Assembly (NCBI GenBank): GCA_030637025.1
Contig: DAOVVV010000028.1
Coordinates: 1-32,142 of the forward strand
Direction: 5' to 3'
Origin: Clostridia bacterium
GTDB taxonomy: Bacteria; CBDUZB01; JAGLHV01
DNA length: 32,142 nucleotides
Every line of letters begins with the position of its first letter. Position 1 is the first letter of the stretch. Positions 1,806 to 10,097 of this stretch are shown here, piece by piece. Under the pieces are notes generated by a model that searched no databases, was not told where the DNA came from, and saw only the letters and a list, made by a program, of their open reading frames with translations. Made by a program: the position numbers and the translations under genes.

Positions 1806-3410
1806 ATGAAGAGAATGAAATATATATTTTTAATTTTTTTCTTTGCTTTAAATATTTTGGTTTTTTATCATTGTTTAGTTCAGGCAGAGTGGAAGATAGA
1901 AATTCTTGACACAGAAGATGATGTGGGTCAATATACTTCTATTGCTATAGACAAAAATAATAATCCCCAAATAAGTTATTATAATGTTGCCAATAGTGAC
2001 CTTAGATATGTATATTGGGACGGTTTTTATTGGGTATATAATATAGTGGATTCAAATGGTGATGTGGGTAAATATTCTTCAATTGCTCTGGATACAAATA
2101 ATTGTCCCCACATTAGTTATTTGGACAGCACTGATGTTCATCTCAAATATGCTAAAAGGGTAAATTCTGTTTGGTACATTGAAGAGCCGGAAGGGGCAAG
2201 CGGTGGTCCATATAGTTCAATCGCTTTTGATACCAATGGAAAACCCCATATTAGTTTTTTGTATATAGCGCCACCCCGTCTTGCATACACCTATTGGCAT
2301 CCGAGTTATTCTTCTTCATGGCATACTACCTATTTAATAGAAACAAATAACACGGGTTCTTATACTTCTATTGCCCTTAATAGCCAAACTGAAGAGGTTT
2401 ATATTAGTTATTATGCCGATGGTGGTCTTAAATATGCCCGCAAGGAGGGTTCAAATTGGTATAAAGAAATAGTTGATTCTGACTACGATGTTGGTTTATA
2501 TACTTCACTTGCTTTGGATACAGATAATTATCCTTGTATAAGTTATTATGACAATAGCCATGGAGACCTTAAATATGCTTATTTGAATGGTTCAAATTGG
2601 TTTACTTGTACAATCGATTCCCAGGCTAATGTTGGTCAATACACTTCGTTGGAAATAGATTCTGATAATAACCCGCACATAAGTTATTATGATGCCTCTA
2701 ATGGGTATCTAAAATATGCTCATAAAGATGGGTCTATATGGGTTATTGAGGTTGTTGATACAGCAGGTAATGTGGGACAATATTGTTCGCTTGCTCTGGA
2801 TGAAAATGATTGTCCTCATATTAGCTATTATGATGCTACTAACGGGGACCTTAAATATGCAAAAAGGGTGCCTGGTTTTTTTATTAAGGGATATGTCAAA
2901 AACTCCGCAGGGGTAGGATTAGCCGGTATTACTTTAACTTTATCCGGTGATGTTTCAAAAACTTATATTACCACGGATACAGGATATTATGAGTTTCTGG
3001 ATTTAATTTCCGGGAATTATACTCTTACTGCGAATAAAGCTGATGGAACTTTTTTATTTGAGCAGAAAAATTATTTTTCTTTAGAAAGTAATTTAGAAAA
3101 TCAGAATTTTATCGGGGTAGAGAGTGGAAAAGCGATAGAGATACATAATTATCCTAATCCCTGTCGTCAGGGGAAGGGAAGTACTTTTGTTTATACTCTT
3201 GGGGAAGCAGATGATGTCTCCCTAAATATTTATACTGATATGGGAGAGTTTGTGAGAGGCGTAGTAGATACTTATACTACACCGGGAACTTATCAGGCAG
3301 GATGGAACGGCAAGGATGTTCATGGAAATCAAATGGAACCTGGTTTGTATTTTGTTGTTTTAAAAGTAGGAAAGAGGGTAAAAAAGAATGCGATAATAAT
3401 TCTTCCTTAA
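1806..3410 (+). CDS. Secreted beta-propeller repeat protein with carboxypeptidase-regulatory-like domain and FlgD-Ig/T9SS-like C-terminal domain
   Basis: Signal peptide (VQA|EW). About 7 repeats of VGQYTSIALDxxxxPHISYY...LKYA. Segment IKGYVKN..G.GLAGITLTLSG. CTD NYPNP...LNIY...WNGKD..G...PGLYFV. Confidence 0.75.
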   Translation: MKRMKYIFLIFFFALNILVFYHCLVQAEWKIEILDTEDDVGQYTSIAIDKNNNPQISYYNVANSDLRYVYWDGFYWVYNIVDSNGDVGKYSSIALDTNNCPHISYLDSTDVHLKYAKRVNSVWYIEEPEGASGGPYSSIAFDTNGKPHISFLYIAPPRLAYTYWHPSYSSSWHTTYLIETNNTGSYTSIALNSQTEEVYISYYADGGLKYARKEGSNWYKEIVDSDYDVGLYTSLALDTDNYPCISYYDNSHGDLKYAYLNGSNWFTCTIDSQANVGQYTSLEIDSDNNPHISYYDASNGYLKYAHKDGSIWVIEVVDTAGNVGQYCSLALDENDCPHISYYDATNGDLKYAKRVPGFFIKGYVKNSAGVGLAGITLTLSGDVSKTYITTDTGYYEFLDLISGNYTLTANKADGTFLFEQKNYFSLESNLENQNFIGVESGKAIEIHNYPNPCRQGKGSTFVYTLGEADDVSLNIYTDMGEFVRGVVDTYTTPGTYQAGWNGKDVHGNQMEPGLYFVVLKVGKRVKKNAIIILP

Positions 3411-3458
3411 ATAAAAATGGTTTTTTTGTAAACAACAAGAAAAAATAGTTTTAAAAAA

Positions 3459-3780
3459 TAAGGTGGTTAATAAAGCCAAAATATGTTTTTCTCTAAACGC
3501 ATAATTTTACCCTGCGGGCACGCAAAAACAAAATAGTCCATAGTCCACAGTCGATAGTCCATAGACAACGGAATAAAGACAACAGATATATGATTTGGAA
3601 GTTTAAATTGATTAAAGGGAGGTTTTAAAAAATGCGGTTTGCAAATGCTAATTTTTGTTAAAATTTGCTAAGTCGTTCAAAACACATTTTGCCTTTATTT
3701 TTTTCTAAGATTGTTTAATAAAGAAATATATATTTTTCACTAAATGCATAGTTTTACCCTATGGACATATAAAAAAAAGC
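3459..3780. repeat. A-B-A palindromic element, copy 1 (interrupted by a heptamer repeat block)
   Basis: Unit A at 3459-3531, degenerate A at 3706-3780 and unit B at about 3647-3703 are colinear with 26233-26488. Confidence 0.85.
3535..3569 (+). repeat. Heptamer tandem repeat AGTCCAT
   Basis: AGTCCAT AGTCCAC AGTCGAT AGTCCAT AGACAAC. Confidence 0.9.
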
Positions 3781-3795
3781 TAATATCCGAGAGAA

Positions 3796-6012
3796 ATGAT
3801 GAGAAAAGCAGTTCTATTTATAATAATTAGTTTAATAATAAATAATGGGTTTATTTTTGGCTCTGAGATGAAGGTACCTGCCGGAGTAGAGGTATCTGCT
3901 TTAGGGGGCGCCGGGACTTCTATGGTGCGAGAGGAATCAGTATATTATAATCCGGCGGCACTTGCTTTTTTCAGAGAGCCTTCTATCGTTACTTCGTGGC
4001 AAAGATGGTATGATTTTATTAATAAAGGCCAGATTATTGGTATTTTTCCCTGCTTTAAAAAAGTGACCATTGGAATTTTTGATAGTTATTCGATTACAAA
4101 AAAAATAGATTGTTGGGATGAAGATAATAATCAGATTAATTCTTCCCGTTTTTTTTCTAATTTAGTAAATATGTCTATTGGTTTCCGGTTAATAAATAAT
4201 TTATCCATTGGTGGTAGTATAAAATATCTTACCGAAAATACTGAAGAGGAACAGGTCTCTTCTAATCTCGCCGGTGATTTATCCGTTTTTACCCAATATA
4301 AGGAAATAATAAATATGGGGGTTAATTGGCAAAACATAGGTAATGTTCAGGAGAGTGTGGTGAAAGCGGGGGTTTCTATGTCGGACAGATCAGAAAAACT
4401 TTCATCTTTTCCCACGATAATTAGTTTAGATTTAAATTATCCTTTACGCTTTAACCCTTATTTATCTCTGGGAATGGAAACATTTCTTTATTCAATATTA
4501 TATGTCCGGGTAGGATATAGAACGGGACCTTTAGATCTGGAAAGATTGGGATATTTGAATGGGTTAAGTTTTGGATTTGGAATTAAGCCTTTTAAAGAAA
4601 GTAATTGGCAGTTGGATTATGCTTTTGTTCCTAACGGGGATTTAGGACAAAAACATCAGGTAAGTATGAAATATAAATTTGGTAAAAAATTAAAGTTAAC
4701 CAAAACCGATCAGGAGGAAGCAACATCCCGGACAAAAGAAGAATTCTTAGAGGAAGGACAAATAAAAACAGAAAGTCTTTTCGAAGAAGGTCTTCAATTA
4801 GTACAACAAGAAAATTATTTAGAAGCAATACTTGTTTTTAACAGATGTCTAAAACAAAATCCGGATTATCAGCAATCAAAAGTTCTACTTAAAGAAGCTT
4901 CTACTAAACTGGACAAAGAAATTATCCTGGAAGGGCAGGATTCAATGATTTTTCAGGGTGTGAAAGAATATTATATAAAAGGAATCAATCAGTACAAAAA
5001 ACATAATTTTGAGGGGGCAATTGGAGAATTTAATAAAGTTATAAAGCATACTTTTCATCCTAAGACCAGAAAATATTTAGAGCAGGCAAAGCAACATCTT
5101 ACAATCCTGGAAAACAAAAAACAGGCAAATTTATATTTTCAGCGTGCGAAAAGTTTAATCAAAGAAGGACAATATACTCAGGCGGAAGAAAATTTAAAAA
5201 AGAGCCTTTTTTATTATTCTGATTATTTGCCGGCAAAAAAATTATTAGAGCAAGTATCACTTAAAACCCATACGGAACAAAAATTGAAGAAACATTTTAT
5301 TACGGGAGAGAAAAATTTTAAGCAAGGTCAATATGAAAAAGCTTTGATTAAATTTTATTATGTATTAAAACTCAATCCGGAAAACAAAAAAGCTTTACAA
5401 ATGATTACTAGATGTGGTTTAAAAATTATAAAAAAAGATAAAGCAGAAAAAATTTCCCCCAAAAAGAGAAAAAATTATTTAAAAAAAGGAAAGATTTATG
5501 AGAAACAAGGGAATTATCAGCAAGCTATTGCTCACTATGCAACGATAATTGTTCATCAGCCGGCGGACATGGAAGTTCTTAAAGAAATACAAAGAGTTTA
5601 TCGAAAAGGACAAAGAGAGGAAAAAGAGCAAAAAAATAAAAAGCAGATTCTTCTGCAGCAGAAAAAAGAAAAAATCAGTCAATATAGTAAAGAAGCCGAA
5701 GAAGCATATAAAGCAGGTAGATATAATTTTGCGATTGAATATTGGCAGAAGGTTTTGGATTTAGATGCGGAAAACGAATATGCTGAAGAAGGAATGAAAA
5801 AATGCAGCAAAAAGTTGGAAAGAGCAACGGGTAAGGGTGTGAATTTAAAGGTAGTGGAAGAATATTATAAACAGGGTTTGATTTATTATAATCAGGGAAA
5901 ATATCAGGAAGCGATATTTGAATGGAAAAAGGTTTTAGAATTAATTCCTGACCATGAAAAAGCAAAGGCAAATATAAAGGCAGTAGAGGAAAAAATGCAG
6001 GTGACCAGATAA
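3796..6012 (+). CDS. PorV/PorQ-family (FadL-like) outer-membrane barrel fused to a long TPR region
   Basis: Signal peptide. ALGGAGT...SVYYNPAALA motif, and a barrel ending LDYAFVPNGDLGQKHQVSMKYKF. Multiple TPRs follow (YYKQGLIYYNQGKYQEAIFEWKKVLELIPDHEKA). Confidence 0.8.
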   Translation: MMRKAVLFIIISLIINNGFIFGSEMKVPAGVEVSALGGAGTSMVREESVYYNPAALAFFREPSIVTSWQRWYDFINKGQIIGIFPCFKKVTIGIFDSYSITKKIDCWDEDNNQINSSRFFSNLVNMSIGFRLINNLSIGGSIKYLTENTEEEQVSSNLAGDLSVFTQYKEIINMGVNWQNIGNVQESVVKAGVSMSDRSEKLSSFPTIISLDLNYPLRFNPYLSLGMETFLYSILYVRVGYRTGPLDLERLGYLNGLSFGFGIKPFKESNWQLDYAFVPNGDLGQKHQVSMKYKFGKKLKLTKTDQEEATSRTKEEFLEEGQIKTESLFEEGLQLVQQENYLEAILVFNRCLKQNPDYQQSKVLLKEASTKLDKEIILEGQDSMIFQGVKEYYIKGINQYKKHNFEGAIGEFNKVIKHTFHPKTRKYLEQAKQHLTILENKKQANLYFQRAKSLIKEGQYTQAEENLKKSLFYYSDYLPAKKLLEQVSLKTHTEQKLKKHFITGEKNFKQGQYEKALIKFYYVLKLNPENKKALQMITRCGLKIIKKDKAEKISPKKRKNYLKKGKIYEKQGNYQQAIAHYATIIVHQPADMEVLKEIQRVYRKGQREEKEQKNKKQILLQQKKEKISQYSKEAEEAYKAGRYNFAIEYWQKVLDLDAENEYAEEGMKKCSKKLERATGKGVNLKVVEEYYKQGLIYYNQGKYQEAIFEWKKVLELIPDHEKAKANIKAVEEKMQVTR

Positions 6013-6036
6013 ATATTAAAAGAAAGGGGAAAAAGA

Positions 6037-6516
6037 GTGAAGTTAAAATTTAAACTGCAGGAATCCAACAGTCCTGAAATTGAGTTGGATAAATCTTTCT
6101 GGTTAGGTAAGATTAAAGTTTGTGTTAATGGGAAAGAAGTAAAACCAATGAAGGAAAAAGGGAATCCCTTCCCTATTCCTATGGGAGATGGGACAGTCAA
6201 AAAAATGTTGGTAAAAGGAGGACTGGATGATCTTCCTAAAGTCATTGTTGACGGAAAACGGATTCATTTAGGCAGAAAACTATTTTGGTATGAATATGCT
6301 TTAGGTTTGATACCGGTTGTGCTTTTAATGGGAGGAGCATGGGGCGGCTTTTGCGGAGGTGTAGGGGTACTGGTTAATTTCAAAATCTTAAGGACTTCTT
6401 ACACAATGAGGACGAAGGTTTTATTTGTTGTGGGGGTTACTTTTTTTTCCAGTTTTATTTATGCAATAATTGTTGTTATGTTTCACCTTTTAATGAGTGC
6501 GGGTGGGGCTATATAA
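6037..6516 (+). CDS. Hypothetical membrane protein
   Basis: GTG start after a purine-rich RBS. Soluble beta-rich N-domain plus 2-3 C-terminal hydrophobic helices. Confidence 0.7.
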   Translation: MKLKFKLQESNSPEIELDKSFWLGKIKVCVNGKEVKPMKEKGNPFPIPMGDGTVKKMLVKGGLDDLPKVIVDGKRIHLGRKLFWYEYALGLIPVVLLMGGAWGGFCGGVGVLVNFKILRTSYTMRTKVLFVVGVTFFSSFIYAIIVVMFHLLMSAGGAI

Positions 6517-6568
6517 AAAGAAAAAGTGTGCACTTTTAATTCTTAAATAACAAAAAAACAAACTTAAC

Positions 6569-6597
6569 TTGACATTGTTTTAATGTAAATGTATAAT
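6569..6597 (+). promoter_or_regulatory. Consensus sigma70 promoter
   Basis: TTGACA (6569-6574), 17-nt spacer, TATAAT (6592-6597): perfect consensus. Confidence 0.85.
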
Positions 6598-6634
6598 ATC
6601 TTACTTAATTTTTTCTTTATCAGTGTTATTTATT

Positions 6635-6669
6635 AGAGGTATCTGTTTTTTGTGAATAGATGCTTTTTT
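6635..6669 (+). terminator. Terminator-like hairpin in the 5' leader
   Basis: AGAGGTATCTGTT pairs with AATAGATGCTTTT (several G-U pairs) and runs into a T tract. Confidence 0.4.
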
Positions 6670-6720
6670 GTCTTATTTAATGACTCTGAAAAAGGGTGTT
6701 AAAAGGGGTTTTTAGCAAGG

Positions 6721-7575
6721 ATGAAGAAAACAGATGTATTAAAATTTTTGATAGTTATAAATCTGTTAGCAATTGTTTTAATTGTCTGGTTCGCCTGGAT
6801 ACAAGATCCAAAATCTGTTTTAGAAGATACTCCGGAAATAAAAGTAGAAACGATAAAGTTAGAGTCGATGGAAAATTTTAAAGAACCTTTGCAGGAAGAA
6901 ATAACCAAGCAAAAAAAACCAGAGAAAAAAGAAAAAAAAGTAATAAAAAAACCGGAAAAAAAAGTAATAAAAATGGCAAAGAAGAAAAAACCGGAAAAAA
7001 AAGAAGTTGTTCCTGAAAAAACATCTAAAGTTTGTATTTATGGTTTGCTAAGTGATAAATATACGGAACCTTCTTTGAAATTTGATACGGCTAATCCCGG
7101 AAATGTAGATGGGGGGTATTTAGGTGCCTGGGGGTCGGCGCAGGTAAAGGGCGGTATTCCGGATACTTATAATGATCCTCCTTCCAGTCTTAAAGTTGCC
7201 TGTGTTGGCGGATGGGGTGGTGTCTGGTTTCAATTTGGATTTGATCCTAAGGGTTCCCCGGGTGAAGCCATGGAAAGAGATATGTCTCTTTATGGAAAAT
7301 ATATAAGGTTCGACATGAAAAGTGACGGAGAAGTAATTGTGGGTATGGAGTGGTGGGATGAAATTGCTCAAAATAAAGATTCAGCCGATATAAAAATTAA
7401 ACGTGATTTAAAATTTCCTACGGATAATAAATGGCATTCTGTTAAAATTGAGTTCACCAAAATAAGAGGAAAAAATTACGGTCATTCGATTAATTTTAAA
7501 AAAATAAAATTACCGGTAAGTTTTTGCGGGGAAAATGTTACTTTTTATATTGATAATTTAAGATGGGAAAAATAA
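6721..7575 (+). CDS. Membrane-anchored protein with KKPEKK linker and CBM-like domain paralogous to 876-1751
   Basis: N-terminal TM helix and Lys/Glu/Pro repeats. C-domain shares YGxLSDxYxxPSxKFDTxNP..DGGY, DMSxY..Y.RFD.K..EVIVG.EW, IKLP and F.ID..RWEK with 876-1751. Confidence 0.8.
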   Translation: MKKTDVLKFLIVINLLAIVLIVWFAWIQDPKSVLEDTPEIKVETIKLESMENFKEPLQEEITKQKKPEKKEKKVIKKPEKKVIKMAKKKKPEKKEVVPEKTSKVCIYGLLSDKYTEPSLKFDTANPGNVDGGYLGAWGSAQVKGGIPDTYNDPPSSLKVACVGGWGGVWFQFGFDPKGSPGEAMERDMSLYGKYIRFDMKSDGEVIVGMEWWDEIAQNKDSADIKIKRDLKFPTDNKWHSVKIEFTKIRGKNYGHSINFKKIKLPVSFCGENVTFYIDNLRWEK

Positions 7576-7580
7576 AGAAG

Positions 7581-7926
7581 AAGACAAAACAAAAGTCCAT
7601 AGTTGACAGACAAAAACAGGCACAAAGGCATCAAGGCACAGAGGCACAGAGTTAAAGAACTCAAGACAAAAATTAGTCCATCGTCTATTGATAACAAATA
7701 ACATAATCAACCACAACGACAGTTATGAATTATGAGTTAAAAACAAAAACAGATTTAGTTCATAGTCCATAGATAACAGATAAAAGATATAAAGACGGTT
7801 AATAAAGACAGTTGAATTAGTTTAGATTGGTTAGATAAAGACAAAGACAGTTTTATTGGTTTAGATTTGTTGAATTGATAAAAGATAAAAAACAAAAAAA
7901 TAGATACTAAATCCGAAATACGAAAT
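7581..7926 (+). repeat. Mosaic array of different short tandem repeats separated by AAAGAC/AAAAAC-like linkers
   Basis: Blocks of AGTCCAT (three blocks), AGGCACAG x4, A(G/A)TTATG x2.5, (A/G)GTT(T)AGATT-like (two blocks) and T(A/C)CGAAA x3. Confidence 0.85.
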
Positions 7927-7979
7927 GAATCTATGTTTTTTTCTCCTTCTTGATGAGGGGATAGAGGGTGGGTAAATAA

Positions 7980-10097
7980 TTGAAGAAGATATTGATTGTT
8001 TTTAAATATAGTGTGGTTGTCTTTTTTTTATTAAGCGTTAGTTGTTTAACTGCTTTTGGTCAGGGAAAAAGTAGCACCACTCTTTATTTATATTTTGCTG
8101 ATGAAGGAATTTATCCTGATACAAGTGTTTTAGAAGATCCATTTAATTCTTACTCTAAATATTTGGTAAGTGATTTGGAAAGAATTAAATGGAAGCACAT
8201 AAATAGTGATAATTCGCGCGATGATTTTTATGTTTGGGCAACTTATCTTGCGTTGGTGCCCGGTGCGGAAGCTCAGTATTATACGGCAATGGCTTTGGAG
8301 AAAGCAAGTTCAAAAGAAGAAATTGTCCGGGGAATGCCTCATAAAGGACTGGTCTTCCGGGGTTTTGGTAATTTAAAGGAACAAGCAGTTAGAGCATATC
8401 AGTCAATAATTAATCATTGGCCCAAGGCAATGAGTTACGATCCCCGTCAAAAGTTATGGTGGTCTTTGGAAGAAGGTTCCCGAAAAGCTATTTATCGTCT
8501 GGGAAAAACACCCGTGGTTCATCGTCCTCTTCCTTTTTCTTTGGTTGGCGGAAAATATGAAATGAGAATGGTAACTAATGATACGACCGGTTATTATCAA
8601 TATGATTGGGCCTGGCATCCGGAGGGAGTGGAAACAGAACAATGGGGGATTAATCAATATCATTCTTTAGGAATGGATTTAGGTTTGAATTATGGCCGAA
8701 AAATTAAAGGCATTTGCGGAATAGAAATATTTGCTAACCGGGTTGCTTATTGGGATGCGCTGTCTTATCGGGAGGATAATGTCGGAGTAGTTATTTCTAA
8801 AGTAGATTTAAATTTTTATGGTGATTGGTTTGATACCTGGATATTTAAAAATGTAGGGCATTATCATTGGGGAGACATGATGGGATTTTATCGGGAGATG
8901 TATGAAACCCAATGGTCCAGGCAGTGTAATGCTTTTACTCCCCAGGGTGTAGAGATTAACGGACGGGGAATCTTGGATGGGATAACGATGATTGCCGGTG
9001 AGGATCCTATTTGGGGAAATAGTTCCGAGATCTTTTTAAAATATGAAAAAAATGTAGGATTGGCTAATTTTAAGTTAATGTATAAAGACAAACTAACCAA
9101 AAAAGAAACAGGAAAAATAGATTCTTTAACCGGGGGAATGTATTACTACGATTTTAATCCCTGGGATAATCAAATGAGTGCTTTTTCCCTGAATGTTGGA
9201 GGGGAAAGAAGAATTTCCTTGGAATCAGAAATAAAAAAGGTTAATGCGGATAATGAAAATATAGCATGGGGGGTAAAAGGAAAAGTTAAAATCATTCCAC
9301 AAAAAGCAGAAATTTCAGCACAATATATTAAAGCAGAGCCATATGCGGGAAATAAAAAAGAATTTTATTTGCAGACAAGATTTGTTCCTATACCCTGTCT
9401 TATTTTAAATAGTGATTATACCTGTCGGGAAAATATTTGGGGTGCTGCTTCTTCTTTTCCTTCTCTGGTTTTAGATAATCGGGAAGGCACAATTATTAAA
9501 GGATCGATTATCTTTGATACAACACCGGAAGTTCCTTTTCGCCTTTGGGATGGAAATTTTAATGAAGATGAAGATGCTCCTCTTGCTCTGGAGTTTGGAT
9601 ACGAGTTTGCTGATTATCCCGGATATACCGACCGCCAAAAACATTATGATTATATTCAACGTGTCTGGTGGGAAGAAGGGACCGGTAGTCAGGGGAGATC
9701 CCCGGTGAAATTAGACAAAATTTTTGCCCAGCTGCTAATAAATCCTTTTAATAGGGGAGATAGAATAATAATAAATTTTGCTACCGGATTAAAACAGGCA
9801 CAGGCAGGAGCGGATTATGTAGTAAAAGAAGAAACCCGTTTTAAAAATATTGAATTGAGTATGAAAATAGGATTTTTCAGAGGTGAAATTAATTGCTTTG
9901 TGGATGATTGGATGCCTTATCAAATAGACGGTCCTTTATATGGAATGACTTACGATGAAAGATTTATTATCTATTTAGGCCGTGTATTTGACCGGCAGGA
10001 AAAATTAAAATTGGGTTTAGAATATGAACAGGTAAATGATAGTCATGAATCAGCCGAGTATAAAGAGTATCGGCTTGTTTGTAGTTTAAAGTTTTAA
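7980..10097 (+). CDS. Predicted outer-membrane beta-barrel with N-terminal TPR-like helical domain (putative glycan porin/receptor)
   Basis: TTG start and signal peptide. Helical TPR-like part (AEAQYYTAMALEKA...QAVRAYQSII). Alternating amphipathic strands and a C-terminal beta-signal YRLVCSLKF. Confidence 0.65.
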   Translation: MKKILIVFKYSVVVFFLLSVSCLTAFGQGKSSTTLYLYFADEGIYPDTSVLEDPFNSYSKYLVSDLERIKWKHINSDNSRDDFYVWATYLALVPGAEAQYYTAMALEKASSKEEIVRGMPHKGLVFRGFGNLKEQAVRAYQSIINHWPKAMSYDPRQKLWWSLEEGSRKAIYRLGKTPVVHRPLPFSLVGGKYEMRMVTNDTTGYYQYDWAWHPEGVETEQWGINQYHSLGMDLGLNYGRKIKGICGIEIFANRVAYWDALSYREDNVGVVISKVDLNFYGDWFDTWIFKNVGHYHWGDMMGFYREMYETQWSRQCNAFTPQGVEINGRGILDGITMIAGEDPIWGNSSEIFLKYEKNVGLANFKLMYKDKLTKKETGKIDSLTGGMYYYDFNPWDNQMSAFSLNVGGERRISLESEIKKVNADNENIAWGVKGKVKIIPQKAEISAQYIKAEPYAGNKKEFYLQTRFVPIPCLILNSDYTCRENIWGAASSFPSLVLDNREGTIIKGSIIFDTTPEVPFRLWDGNFNEDEDAPLALEFGYEFADYPGYTDRQKHYDYIQRVWWEEGTGSQGRSPVKLDKIFAQLLINPFNRGDRIIINFATGLKQAQAGADYVVKEETRFKNIELSMKIGFFRGEINCFVDDWMPYQIDGPLYGMTYDERFIIYLGRVFDRQEKLKLGLEYEQVNDSHESAEYKEYRLVCSLKF

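Follow-up and report, generated by a model that had tools for sequence, protein, structure and literature searches.

What fills the intergenic gap at positions 7576-7979 of the 32,142-nt stretch of Clostridia DNA analysed here (the window; contig DAOVVV010000028.1), where short tandem repeats of several unrelated-looking unit types stand side by side, and how did they come to lie there? The gap is read here, at a probability of roughly 0.55, as a resident mosaic array of short tandem-repeat modules, non-coding, constrained in sequence across the genus and of the same kind as the short tandemly repeated repetitive (STRR) sequences of cyanobacteria. Every block in it is a copy, often shortened, of one of five dispersed families (A to E), and the same class of repeats also forms the arms of gene cassettes encoding IVP, the small four-helix-bundle 'rRNA intervening-sequence protein' (S23p, PF05635). 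The history of the array is most likely one of long residence in the gap with turnover, and we take it to be selfish or nearly neutral DNA; no evidence of a service to the neighbouring operon was found.

Repeat modules in the gap and across the genome

An earlier note, made from the letters of the window, had described roughly eight repeat blocks within 7581-7926, joined by common hexamers and all of one strand polarity. All eight blocks were recovered at their places, and both the tandem units and the linkers exceed chance. Indeed, near-duplicate adjacent units of period 7-10 cover 179 of the 346 bases of this interval, whereas 1000 dinucleotide-preserving shuffles of it gave a mean coverage of 35.8 (sd 23.4, maximum 129) and none reached 179. 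The hexamer AAAGAC occurs four times (0.55 expected; 2 of 1000 shuffles reach four), and AAAGAC, AAAAAC and AACGAC combined occur nine times (1.60 expected; 0 of 1000 shuffles reach nine), all nine on the + strand and none on the reverse strand. The single polarity held as well: the gap contains no strong inverted partners, and its only short-range inverted pair is a weak, A/T-rich one of 12 nt (Table 1).

Five profiles, one per module family, were built from seed copies and searched with nhmmer against the genome of the window (G000; 2.36 Mb, 77 contigs, 33.5% G+C); the reference in the searches was a canonical module A copy from a different gap of the window. At E<=0.01, this gave 78 matches for module A (four AGTCCAT-type heptamers), 42 for module B (four AGGCACAA-type octamers), 25 for module C (AGTTATG-type), 37 for module D (GGTTnnATT-type, period 9-10) and 20 for module E (TACTAAA/CGAAA-type). 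The profiles detect B, C, D and E in the gap, where module B is a full-length member of its family and the two copies of module D are 86% identical across 29 nt; the three A-type pairs of the gap went undetected because they are too short to score. Tandem Repeats Finder (score 30), below whose threshold two-copy blocks score, reported four arrays in the gap, with units of 8 nt (7618-7651), AGATAAA (7771-7795), 13 nt (7789-7813) and 7 nt (7904-7926).

The enrichment of these units elsewhere in the genome, which the earlier note had anticipated, is pronounced. At E<=0.1, the profiles have 227 matches in G000, 216 of them intergenic in a genome of which crude open reading frame (ORF) calls span 87.8%, and these matches group into 120 arrays. 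The gap is thus one of about 120 arrays and not the special hotspot that had been suggested. Furthermore, ATAGTCCATAG occurs in 46 + 60 copies against about 0.8 expected per strand, and the AGTCCAT unit is the commonest non-trivial tandem unit of the genome (60 rows of the tandem-repeat table, canonical form ACTATGG). Masking of 16-mers with at least four copies marks 15.0% of intergenic but 1.1% of coding DNA; masks of 11-mers and 13-mers were too permissive at this AT-richness.

The arrays elsewhere are built like the one in the gap. A single polarity was found in 48 of the 52 arrays with at least two matches, the remaining 4 being mixed, and in 16 of 18 multi-module arrays of a blind 599-kb sample from the sister species G001. 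Module order is free, nearly all transitions being present, and 80 of 105 arrays begin with A or D. Separate loci have stretches in common that span several modules and exceed 150 nt (for example on contig C11), and higher-order tandem duplications of 100-150 nt occur within arrays (contigs C4 and C26). The genes that flank the arrays are of many kinds.

Conservation and turnover among relatives

The phylum-level group of the window comprises four genomes of one genus in the collection used here. With up to 3 mismatches, the module A 32-mer is found 53, 156, 49 and 23 times in these four species (53 in G000), and it is absent from 37 genomes of other families, as is a reversed control. The internal order of variant units in module A, together with a second conserved order, recurs in all the species. 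Between G000 and G001, whose coding DNA is 83.5% identical, non-orthologous copies of module A show an identity of 0.922 (0.951 within G000 and 0.911 within G001), against 0.668 at four-fold sites (14,698 sites from 150 ortholog pairs). Module A identity being far above that of four-fold sites, the modules are held constant by selection on the element, by selection on the host, or by recent exchange; in the reading preferred here, a sequence-specific agent would keep them so.

The same figures bear on an account in which each block is an ordinary local microsatellite, formed on the spot by replication slippage, with neither dispersal nor a sequence-specific agent. Unit copy number does vary among loci and species, and PMC4692102 gives polymerase slippage as a proposed source of the bacterial heptamer excess. 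However, plain slippage is inadequate for a constancy of 92% against 67% at four-fold sites between species, for a 32-nt word whose variants recur in fixed order in 53 copies in G000 and also in three other species, for multi-module stretches of more than 150 nt common to several loci, and for five unit types of differing period side by side. The recurrence of the 32-mer and the between-species identity largely refute this account, which we regard as very unlikely.

The words are constant and the content of individual gaps is not. Comparison with the blind G001 sample (first 60 contigs) gave 323 reciprocal best hits, along with 203 adjacent gene pairs that are conserved. Of these pairs, 195 have no array between their genes in either species, 4 have one in both, 1 in G000 alone and 3 in G001 alone (Fisher p = 2.5e-6). 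Polarity relative to the genes is kept in the 4 shared gaps, in one of them over the first part only (A+C+E-A- in G001). The module letters differ in three (AD versus AAEE, AADB versus ACEA, D versus CA), the fourth having D in both, and all four sequences diverge after the first few bases. In one shared gap, a single AGTCCAT unit in G000 stands opposite four in G001; in another, the array is of D type in G000 and of A-C type in G001, and a well-conserved promoter region lies downstream of it. The locus in question behaves alike, and the expectation that it would differ between relatives is borne out: the gap and its G001 ortholog both open with A-type units, and a blastn match extends 34 nt past the stop codon, the remainder (404 nt in G000, about 570 nt in G001) being unrelated. 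With the same gaps occupied in both species but filled differently, the arrays appear to be old residents of particular gaps with fast internal turnover. Turnover could proceed by slippage at the level of units, and by duplication or replacement of modules through recombination or conversion between arrays that share units, the latter route including the occasional insertion and decay of IVP-type cassettes.

Beyond the genus, the exact module A 23-mer was found at no fewer than 102 loci of a species-level genome collection. In other phyla, it is carried by Pedobacter albus and Runella defluvii (Bacteroidota isolates), by metagenome-assembled genomes of Cytophagaceae, Flammeovirgaceae, Schleiferiaceae, Planctomycetales and Chlamydiae, and by records labelled Ratteibacteria and Omnitrophota. 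There, its usual place is just past a stop codon, and its own reverse complement comes next, giving a hairpin. By sequence, AGTC-core heptamers are common to several phyla.

Position and orientation of the arrays

Sense arrays between co-directional genes of G000 (n=71) start at a median of 22 nt past the upstream stop codon (interquartile range 13.5-58.5) and end at a median of 178 nt ahead of the next start codon, the latter distance being uncertain because the gene calls are crude longest ORFs. Consistently, the 16-mer mask shows repeated DNA from 8 nt past stop codons to 50 nt ahead of start codons, AAAGAC begins within about 8 nt of the stop codon of 32 genes, most of which continue as arrays, and AGTCCAT lies within 25 nt past 21 stop codons and its complement past none. 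A place in the leader of the downstream barrel/ABC (ATP-binding cassette) operon, as had been proposed for the mosaic, is a poor fit with arrays anchored to the upstream stop and not to the downstream start.

In G000, 70 arrays are in sense and 25 in antisense orientation (binomial p = 4e-6). By module, the sense and antisense counts are 49 and 21 for A, 24 and 9 for B, 14 and 6 for C, 27 and 1 for D, and 3 and 10 for E. Gene strand is confounded with local GC skew, 1518 of 1634 genes being co-oriented, so that the polarity of replication and that of transcription are inseparable in this count. The bias was not reproduced in the blind G001 sample (10 sense, 9 antisense).

The arrays might instead be functional cis elements, that is, multivalent binding platforms or spacers on the transcript, as 3' UTR or intercistronic RNA, or on the DNA, with a part in termination, insulation, RNA stability or nucleoid organisation. 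The constraint on module sequences well above neutral sites, the sense bias of G000 (above all that of module D), the start of arrays shortly after stop codons and the lack of the AGTCCAT complement there all argue for such a role. The 9-10-nt period of module D is moreover close to one helical turn, and the scan of the gap called no + strand promoter-like site, which makes read-through transcription plausible; no terminator-like site was called there either. On the other hand, sequence differs in all four shared orthologous gaps and module letters in three, the sense bias is missing in the G001 sample, and module E runs in the opposite orientation. The gap does not stand out in its RNA fold (z -1.47), Rfam covariance models gave 0 matches at E<=1 over window positions 3300-8200, and the flanking genes are of many kinds, with no partner protein known. 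A cis function is therefore considered improbable.

The AAAGAC linker

The association of modules with AAAGAC is genuine but uneven genome-wide. Among full-length module B copies of G000, 20 of 35 have AAAGAC immediately 5', as do 17 of 32 copies of module D (7 with AAAGAC flush with the match, 10 as AAGACA, shifted inward by one base). For module A, it is immediately 5' in 9 of 57 copies and within 14 nt downstream in 26 of 78; it precedes none of 24 copies of module C and none of 15 of module E. AAAGAC and its relatives AGACAAC, AGATAAC and AGATAAA also form tandem runs of their own, and AAAGAC is for this reason read as one more of the system's unit families and as its most frequent joining unit, not as an established insertion target. 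The AAA(G/A)AC target site of the earlier note finds no support here.

Association with IVP genes

The link of similar repeats to four-helix-bundle genes, also given in the earlier note, holds in other genomes and in G001, but no such co-location was found in G000. PF05635 genes are present in all five tested genomes with the module A 23-mer, 1 to 7 in each. Local alignment z-scores between the 215 nt upstream and the 220 nt downstream of IVP genes revealed complementary repeat arms (z>=4) at 15 of the 20 loci of a first set, whose median z is 7.2, and at 9 of 12 loci in a second set, giving 24 of 32 in total; among randomly chosen G000 genes, 3 of 120 showed them. A previous test based on shared reverse-complement 7-mers was noisy (8 of 20 loci versus 16 of 150 controls). 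The arms are short tandem arrays, with a separate unit type for each gene copy. AGTC-core arms flank IVP genes in the genomes G045, G042 and G065, and the arms of cassettes in G003 and G001 consist of AGACGAA-like units resembling the linker.

In a wider comparison of 147 genomes from other families, 16 count as array-positive, having five or more matches to a pattern of four AGTC-core units or to the reverse of that pattern, a threshold picked after the table had been seen. IVP genes are present in 14 of these 16, versus 43 of the 131 array-negative genomes (Fisher p = 3.4e-5). With an alternative cut (forward pattern, at least 1 match), the counts are 14 of 17 versus 43 of 130 (p = 1.3e-4). 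In PMC4990558, Coxiella's intervening sequence (IVS) is likewise described as having tandem heptamers, in strain-variable number, just upstream of its IVP ORF.

Two gaps of G001 connect these cassettes to the arrays of the genus. The G001 gap orthologous to 7576-7979 holds the last 21-23 codons and the stop codon of an IVP gene, i.e. a decayed cassette, with 78% identity over 69 nt to a G003 gene (blastn E 6e-12; tblastn E 6.8e-7) and an arm-like stretch upstream (E 9e-4); cassette decay is thus observed in the sister species. A second gap (L198, G001:C179:2752-4666) contains an intact IVP gene between direct copies of module D joined by AAAGAC, with an inverted-arm z of 0.2. Its G000 counterpart (C71 6547-6838) begins with the orthologous D module, followed by A, E, other units and a gene-less element, and carries no gene.

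This gene-less element, composed of GTCATA-type units around CGAACGAAGTGAG, has 7 exact copies in G000 and was observed at C26:43237-44684, C11:3295-3680, C35:33665-34133 and C71:6547-6838. It is similar to the flanks of the second G000 IVP gene, and in the Ratteibacteria genome G045 the IVP start codon is closely preceded by CGAACGAAGTGAG. Judged by this resemblance, it may be an IVP cassette minus its gene.

These gaps also lend themselves to another explanation, the main reading of the earlier note, in which the mosaic is a stack of footprints: repeat-flanked IVP cassettes would have entered separately at AAAGAC-type targets and later been lost, each leaving one block as its solo arm, so that the gap would be a record of serial insertions. 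The decayed cassette in the orthologous G001 gap, the linker-like arms of the G003 and G001 cassettes, and the gap that is module-D-flanked in G001 and a mosaic minus the gene in G000 would all be expected; deletion between direct arms, such as those of the intact G001 gene, would yield a solo module, and the distinct unit type of each IVP copy would account for neighbouring blocks that look unrelated. Yet G000 has about 120 arrays against 2 IVP genes and 0 gene fragments, and the decay of cassettes that mostly have inverted arms (24 of 32) should leave hairpins, whereas mixed polarity is confined to 4 of 52 arrays. Moreover, a few module words recur at many loci in place of a new unit type per event, and no pair of empty and filled sites defines a target site or a duplication. 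A pure footprint stack is on balance unlikely.

The reading as a resident mosaic array, with cassettes as occasional visitors, has itself several points against it. The gap contains no ORF and no IVP remnant detectable by tblastn, and G000 has two intact IVP genes, both on contig C7, at C7:20595-20912 and C7:11814-12125, with no gene fragments genome-wide in the same search. Only one of the two is near an array (a reverse-complement module A at 105 nt), the chance of a random segment lying within 500 nt of one being 7%, and in neither is the complementarity of the flanks strong (z 2.1 and 1.0). The blocks of the gap are all direct, unlike the arms of cassettes, for which inversion is the usual state; cassettes may simply land in arrays, which would reverse the direction of cause. 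DNA exchange between co-resident species could imitate sequence constraint, and the sense bias of G000 could hint at a role at transcript level. The late choice of the array-positive threshold and the crude gene starts weigh on the same side.

To our knowledge, the IVP/S23p proteins have gone unexplained for about 30 years. The present locus and its relatives tie heptamer arrays to these proteins through fixed words, gaps that swap content, and one intact and one decayed IVP gap; a general link between the two was not found described in the searchable literature, subscription journals and supplements being outside its scope. As a tentative extension, which we would venture as doubtful yet conceivable, heptamer-type intergenic repeats across bacteria, STRRs included, would derive from a single, unrecognised class of mobile cassette, as its arms or as solo remnants. 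IVP/S23p would be the sole gene of this class, and the IVP protein the sequence-specific factor that recognises and conserves the tandem 7-10-nt units. The lineage of the window would then have shifted from inverted arms to co-oriented direct modules, stacked after stop codons by serial insertion, deletion between direct arms and conversion. Matching AGTC-core units, together with IVP genes, are present in cultured Pedobacter albus and Runella defluvii. Should the arrays be plain junk DNA, they would still break assemblies and mislead gene-start and operon calls.

Layout of the gap and its surroundings

The features of the gap and of the other window gap used for reference are given in Table 1. 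Neither flanking ORF (284 aa and 705 aa) has a match in Pfam or NCBIfam.

Table 1. Features in and around the repeat mosaic (window coordinates; E values from nhmmer)
Feature	Position	Strand	Remarks
Canonical 32-nt module A (AGTCCAT AGTCCAC AGTCGAT AGTCCAT AGAC)	3535..3566	+	other window gap; AAAGAC next; E 1.7e-10
Upstream gene, 284 aa	6721..7575	+	stop codon 19 nt ahead of first repeat block
Intergenic gap with mosaic, 404 nt	7576..7979	+	A-rich: A makes up 166 of the 346 bases of 7581-7926
Short A-type block AGTCCAT AGTTGAC AGAC	7594..7611	+	G001 ortholog likewise opens with A-type units after stop codon
Linker AAAAAC	7612..7617	+	immediately 5' of module B
Module B, four 8-nt units AGGCACAA AGGCATCA AGGCACAG AGGCACAG	7618..7651	+	E 5.1e-9
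Degenerate A-type pair AGTCCAT CGTCTAT	7675..7688	+	
Linker AACGAC, then partial module C (AGTTATG AATTATG AGTTAAA)	7715..7741	+	E 0.05
A-type pair AGTTCAT AGTCCAT into AGAYAAN heptamers AGATAAC AGATAAA AGATAT	7757..7795	+	
AAAGAC linker and module D copy 1 (AGTTGAATT AGTTTAGATT GGTTAGAT)	7804..7836	+	E 0.0085; units at 7810-7836
Two AAAGAC linkers and module D copy 2 (AGTTTTATT GGTTTAGATT TGTTGAATT)	7837..7876	+	units at 7849-7876
Weak A/T-rich inverted pair 7894-7905 / 7929-7940, 12 nt, 92% complementary	7894..7940	+	23-nt loop contains module E
Partial module E (TACTAAA TCCGAAA TACGAAA)	7901..7926	+	E 0.011; block 7905-7925
Downstream gene, 705 aa, TTG start	7980..10097	+	then ABC permease and solute-binding genes

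The inverted pair is followed, ahead of the 705-aa gene, by a run of seven T. Pair and T run may together be a weak terminator, to judge from their sequence; the terminator scan made no call.

Two other identities for the gap were considered and rejected. Its units of 7-10 nt lie head to tail without spacers, which differs from a CRISPR array, with its identical repeats of 23-47 nt and unique spacers of similar size. A coding reading fails for want of a + strand ORF; purine richness accounts for the frames that are open on the - strand (7545-7716). Distant blastn searches against plasmids and phages gave no match, and viral contigs had none to the module A 23-mer.

The locus is carried by runs from cold-seep and marine-sediment metagenomes. 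Among the contigs on 6800-8800 from four runs (X1, X3, X5, X6), none bridges the gap, so that they carry no information on block number between strains. In two runs of the same study, two contigs tile the locus with 0-4 differences and end at module B, and in run X1 the summed contig depth over module B (7604-7670) is 2474.8, against 17.8 in the flanks. Module B is very abundant in those communities and breaks short-read assemblies.

Comparison with known repeat systems

Knowledge of heptamer repeats goes back to 1990 for cyanobacteria and to 2015 for Xanthomonas, and their origin and function have no accepted account. The original STRR paper is that of Mazel and colleagues of 1990; published STRR units reportedly share the four-base core of module A. 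The likeness to cyanobacterial STRRs drawn in the earlier note proved apt by description. Indeed, G000 has tandem units of about 7 nt, many dispersed intergenic copies and units shared among relatives. According to Rehm et al. (2015, PMC4692102), STRRs and the heptamers of Xanthomonas and Anabaena likewise form tens to hundreds of dispersed intergenic arrays of tandem heptamers, which lie near the 5' neighbouring ORF, sometimes overlapping its stop codon, and far from the next one (on average 28 nt and 160 nt, respectively), are 89-93% intergenic in two xanthomonads, and occupy corresponding gaps in related species, where they vary in length and sequence.

The G000 arrays differ from STRRs in concatenating families of period 7, 8 and 9-10 in one polarity and with a common joining unit, and in that each family is a fixed 30-nt word and not a homogeneous run. 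They are A-rich and not G-rich, so that no G-quadruplex is expected, and G000 is not a cyanobacterium, whereas STRRs were first defined in heterocystous cyanobacteria. With IVS/IVP cassettes, they share the class of short tandem units found in the arms at 24 of 32 IVP loci; unlike these cassettes, the gap has no ORF, lies outside rRNA genes and lacks inverted arms, hence any long stem for RNase III.

Bacterial interspersed mosaic elements (BIMEs) of E. coli are built around repetitive extragenic palindromic (REP) units and are paired with a REP-associated tyrosine transposase (RAYT). BIMEs and the REP/REPIN-RAYT system are likewise extragenic mosaics of a few conserved short motifs at many gaps, whereas the G000 modules are direct and non-palindromic and show no association with the Y1 transposase genes.

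Transposition and other repeated elements

Transposition of the REP/RAYT type by an HUH transposase, or as miniature inverted-repeat elements, would be a further way to disperse the modules. G000 does have three Y1_Tnp genes, and REP-like hairpins and a 159-nt element with terminal inverted repeats occur in the same gaps as the arrays. The modules themselves, however, have neither palindrome nor terminal inverted repeats, and neither these nor a target-site duplication was found around the blocks. The arrays nearest to Y1_Tnp genes are 2477 nt and 6432 nt away, and the contig of the third gene has none; the three Y1_Tnp and two integrase genes of G000 are not near arrays, and these distances speak against the co-location with HUH or integrase genes raised in the earlier note. 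This route is most improbable. Templated repeat addition, raised there too, has no candidate enzyme, as RVT_1 reverse transcriptase had 0 matches in G000 (97.8% complete, so that a missing contig is possible).

The element of about 159 nt is also represented in the window, where 3411-3795 contains both its ends, with module A and AAAGAC between them; its peak 14-mer count in G000 is 50. A small element with an internal hairpin (CCGCCTTA...GCTNCAGC, about 40 nt) splits modules A and B, always just past CAT, at C31:20140-20204, C4:27558, C40:2785, C42:3517 and C26:11422; at C4, it links the start of a B module with the end of an A module. Elhai and colleagues reportedly described, in 2008, small dispersed repeats inserted in cyanobacterial heptamer arrays. 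The insertion of the 40-nt element at a fixed point within modules matches those repeats; 7581-7926 differs in having no such insert.

Finally, one family of paralogous genes, ending in GKVFNGTVVVAK or a near variant, has an array within about 15 nt past the stop codon of every listed copy (C11:1567-3297, C12:3-605, C12:842-2578, C28:341-2071, C58:1555-3267, C58:10923-12086, C58:18955-20526 and C71:303-3032). These paralogs differ in the first module of the trailing array, which is D, B or A.

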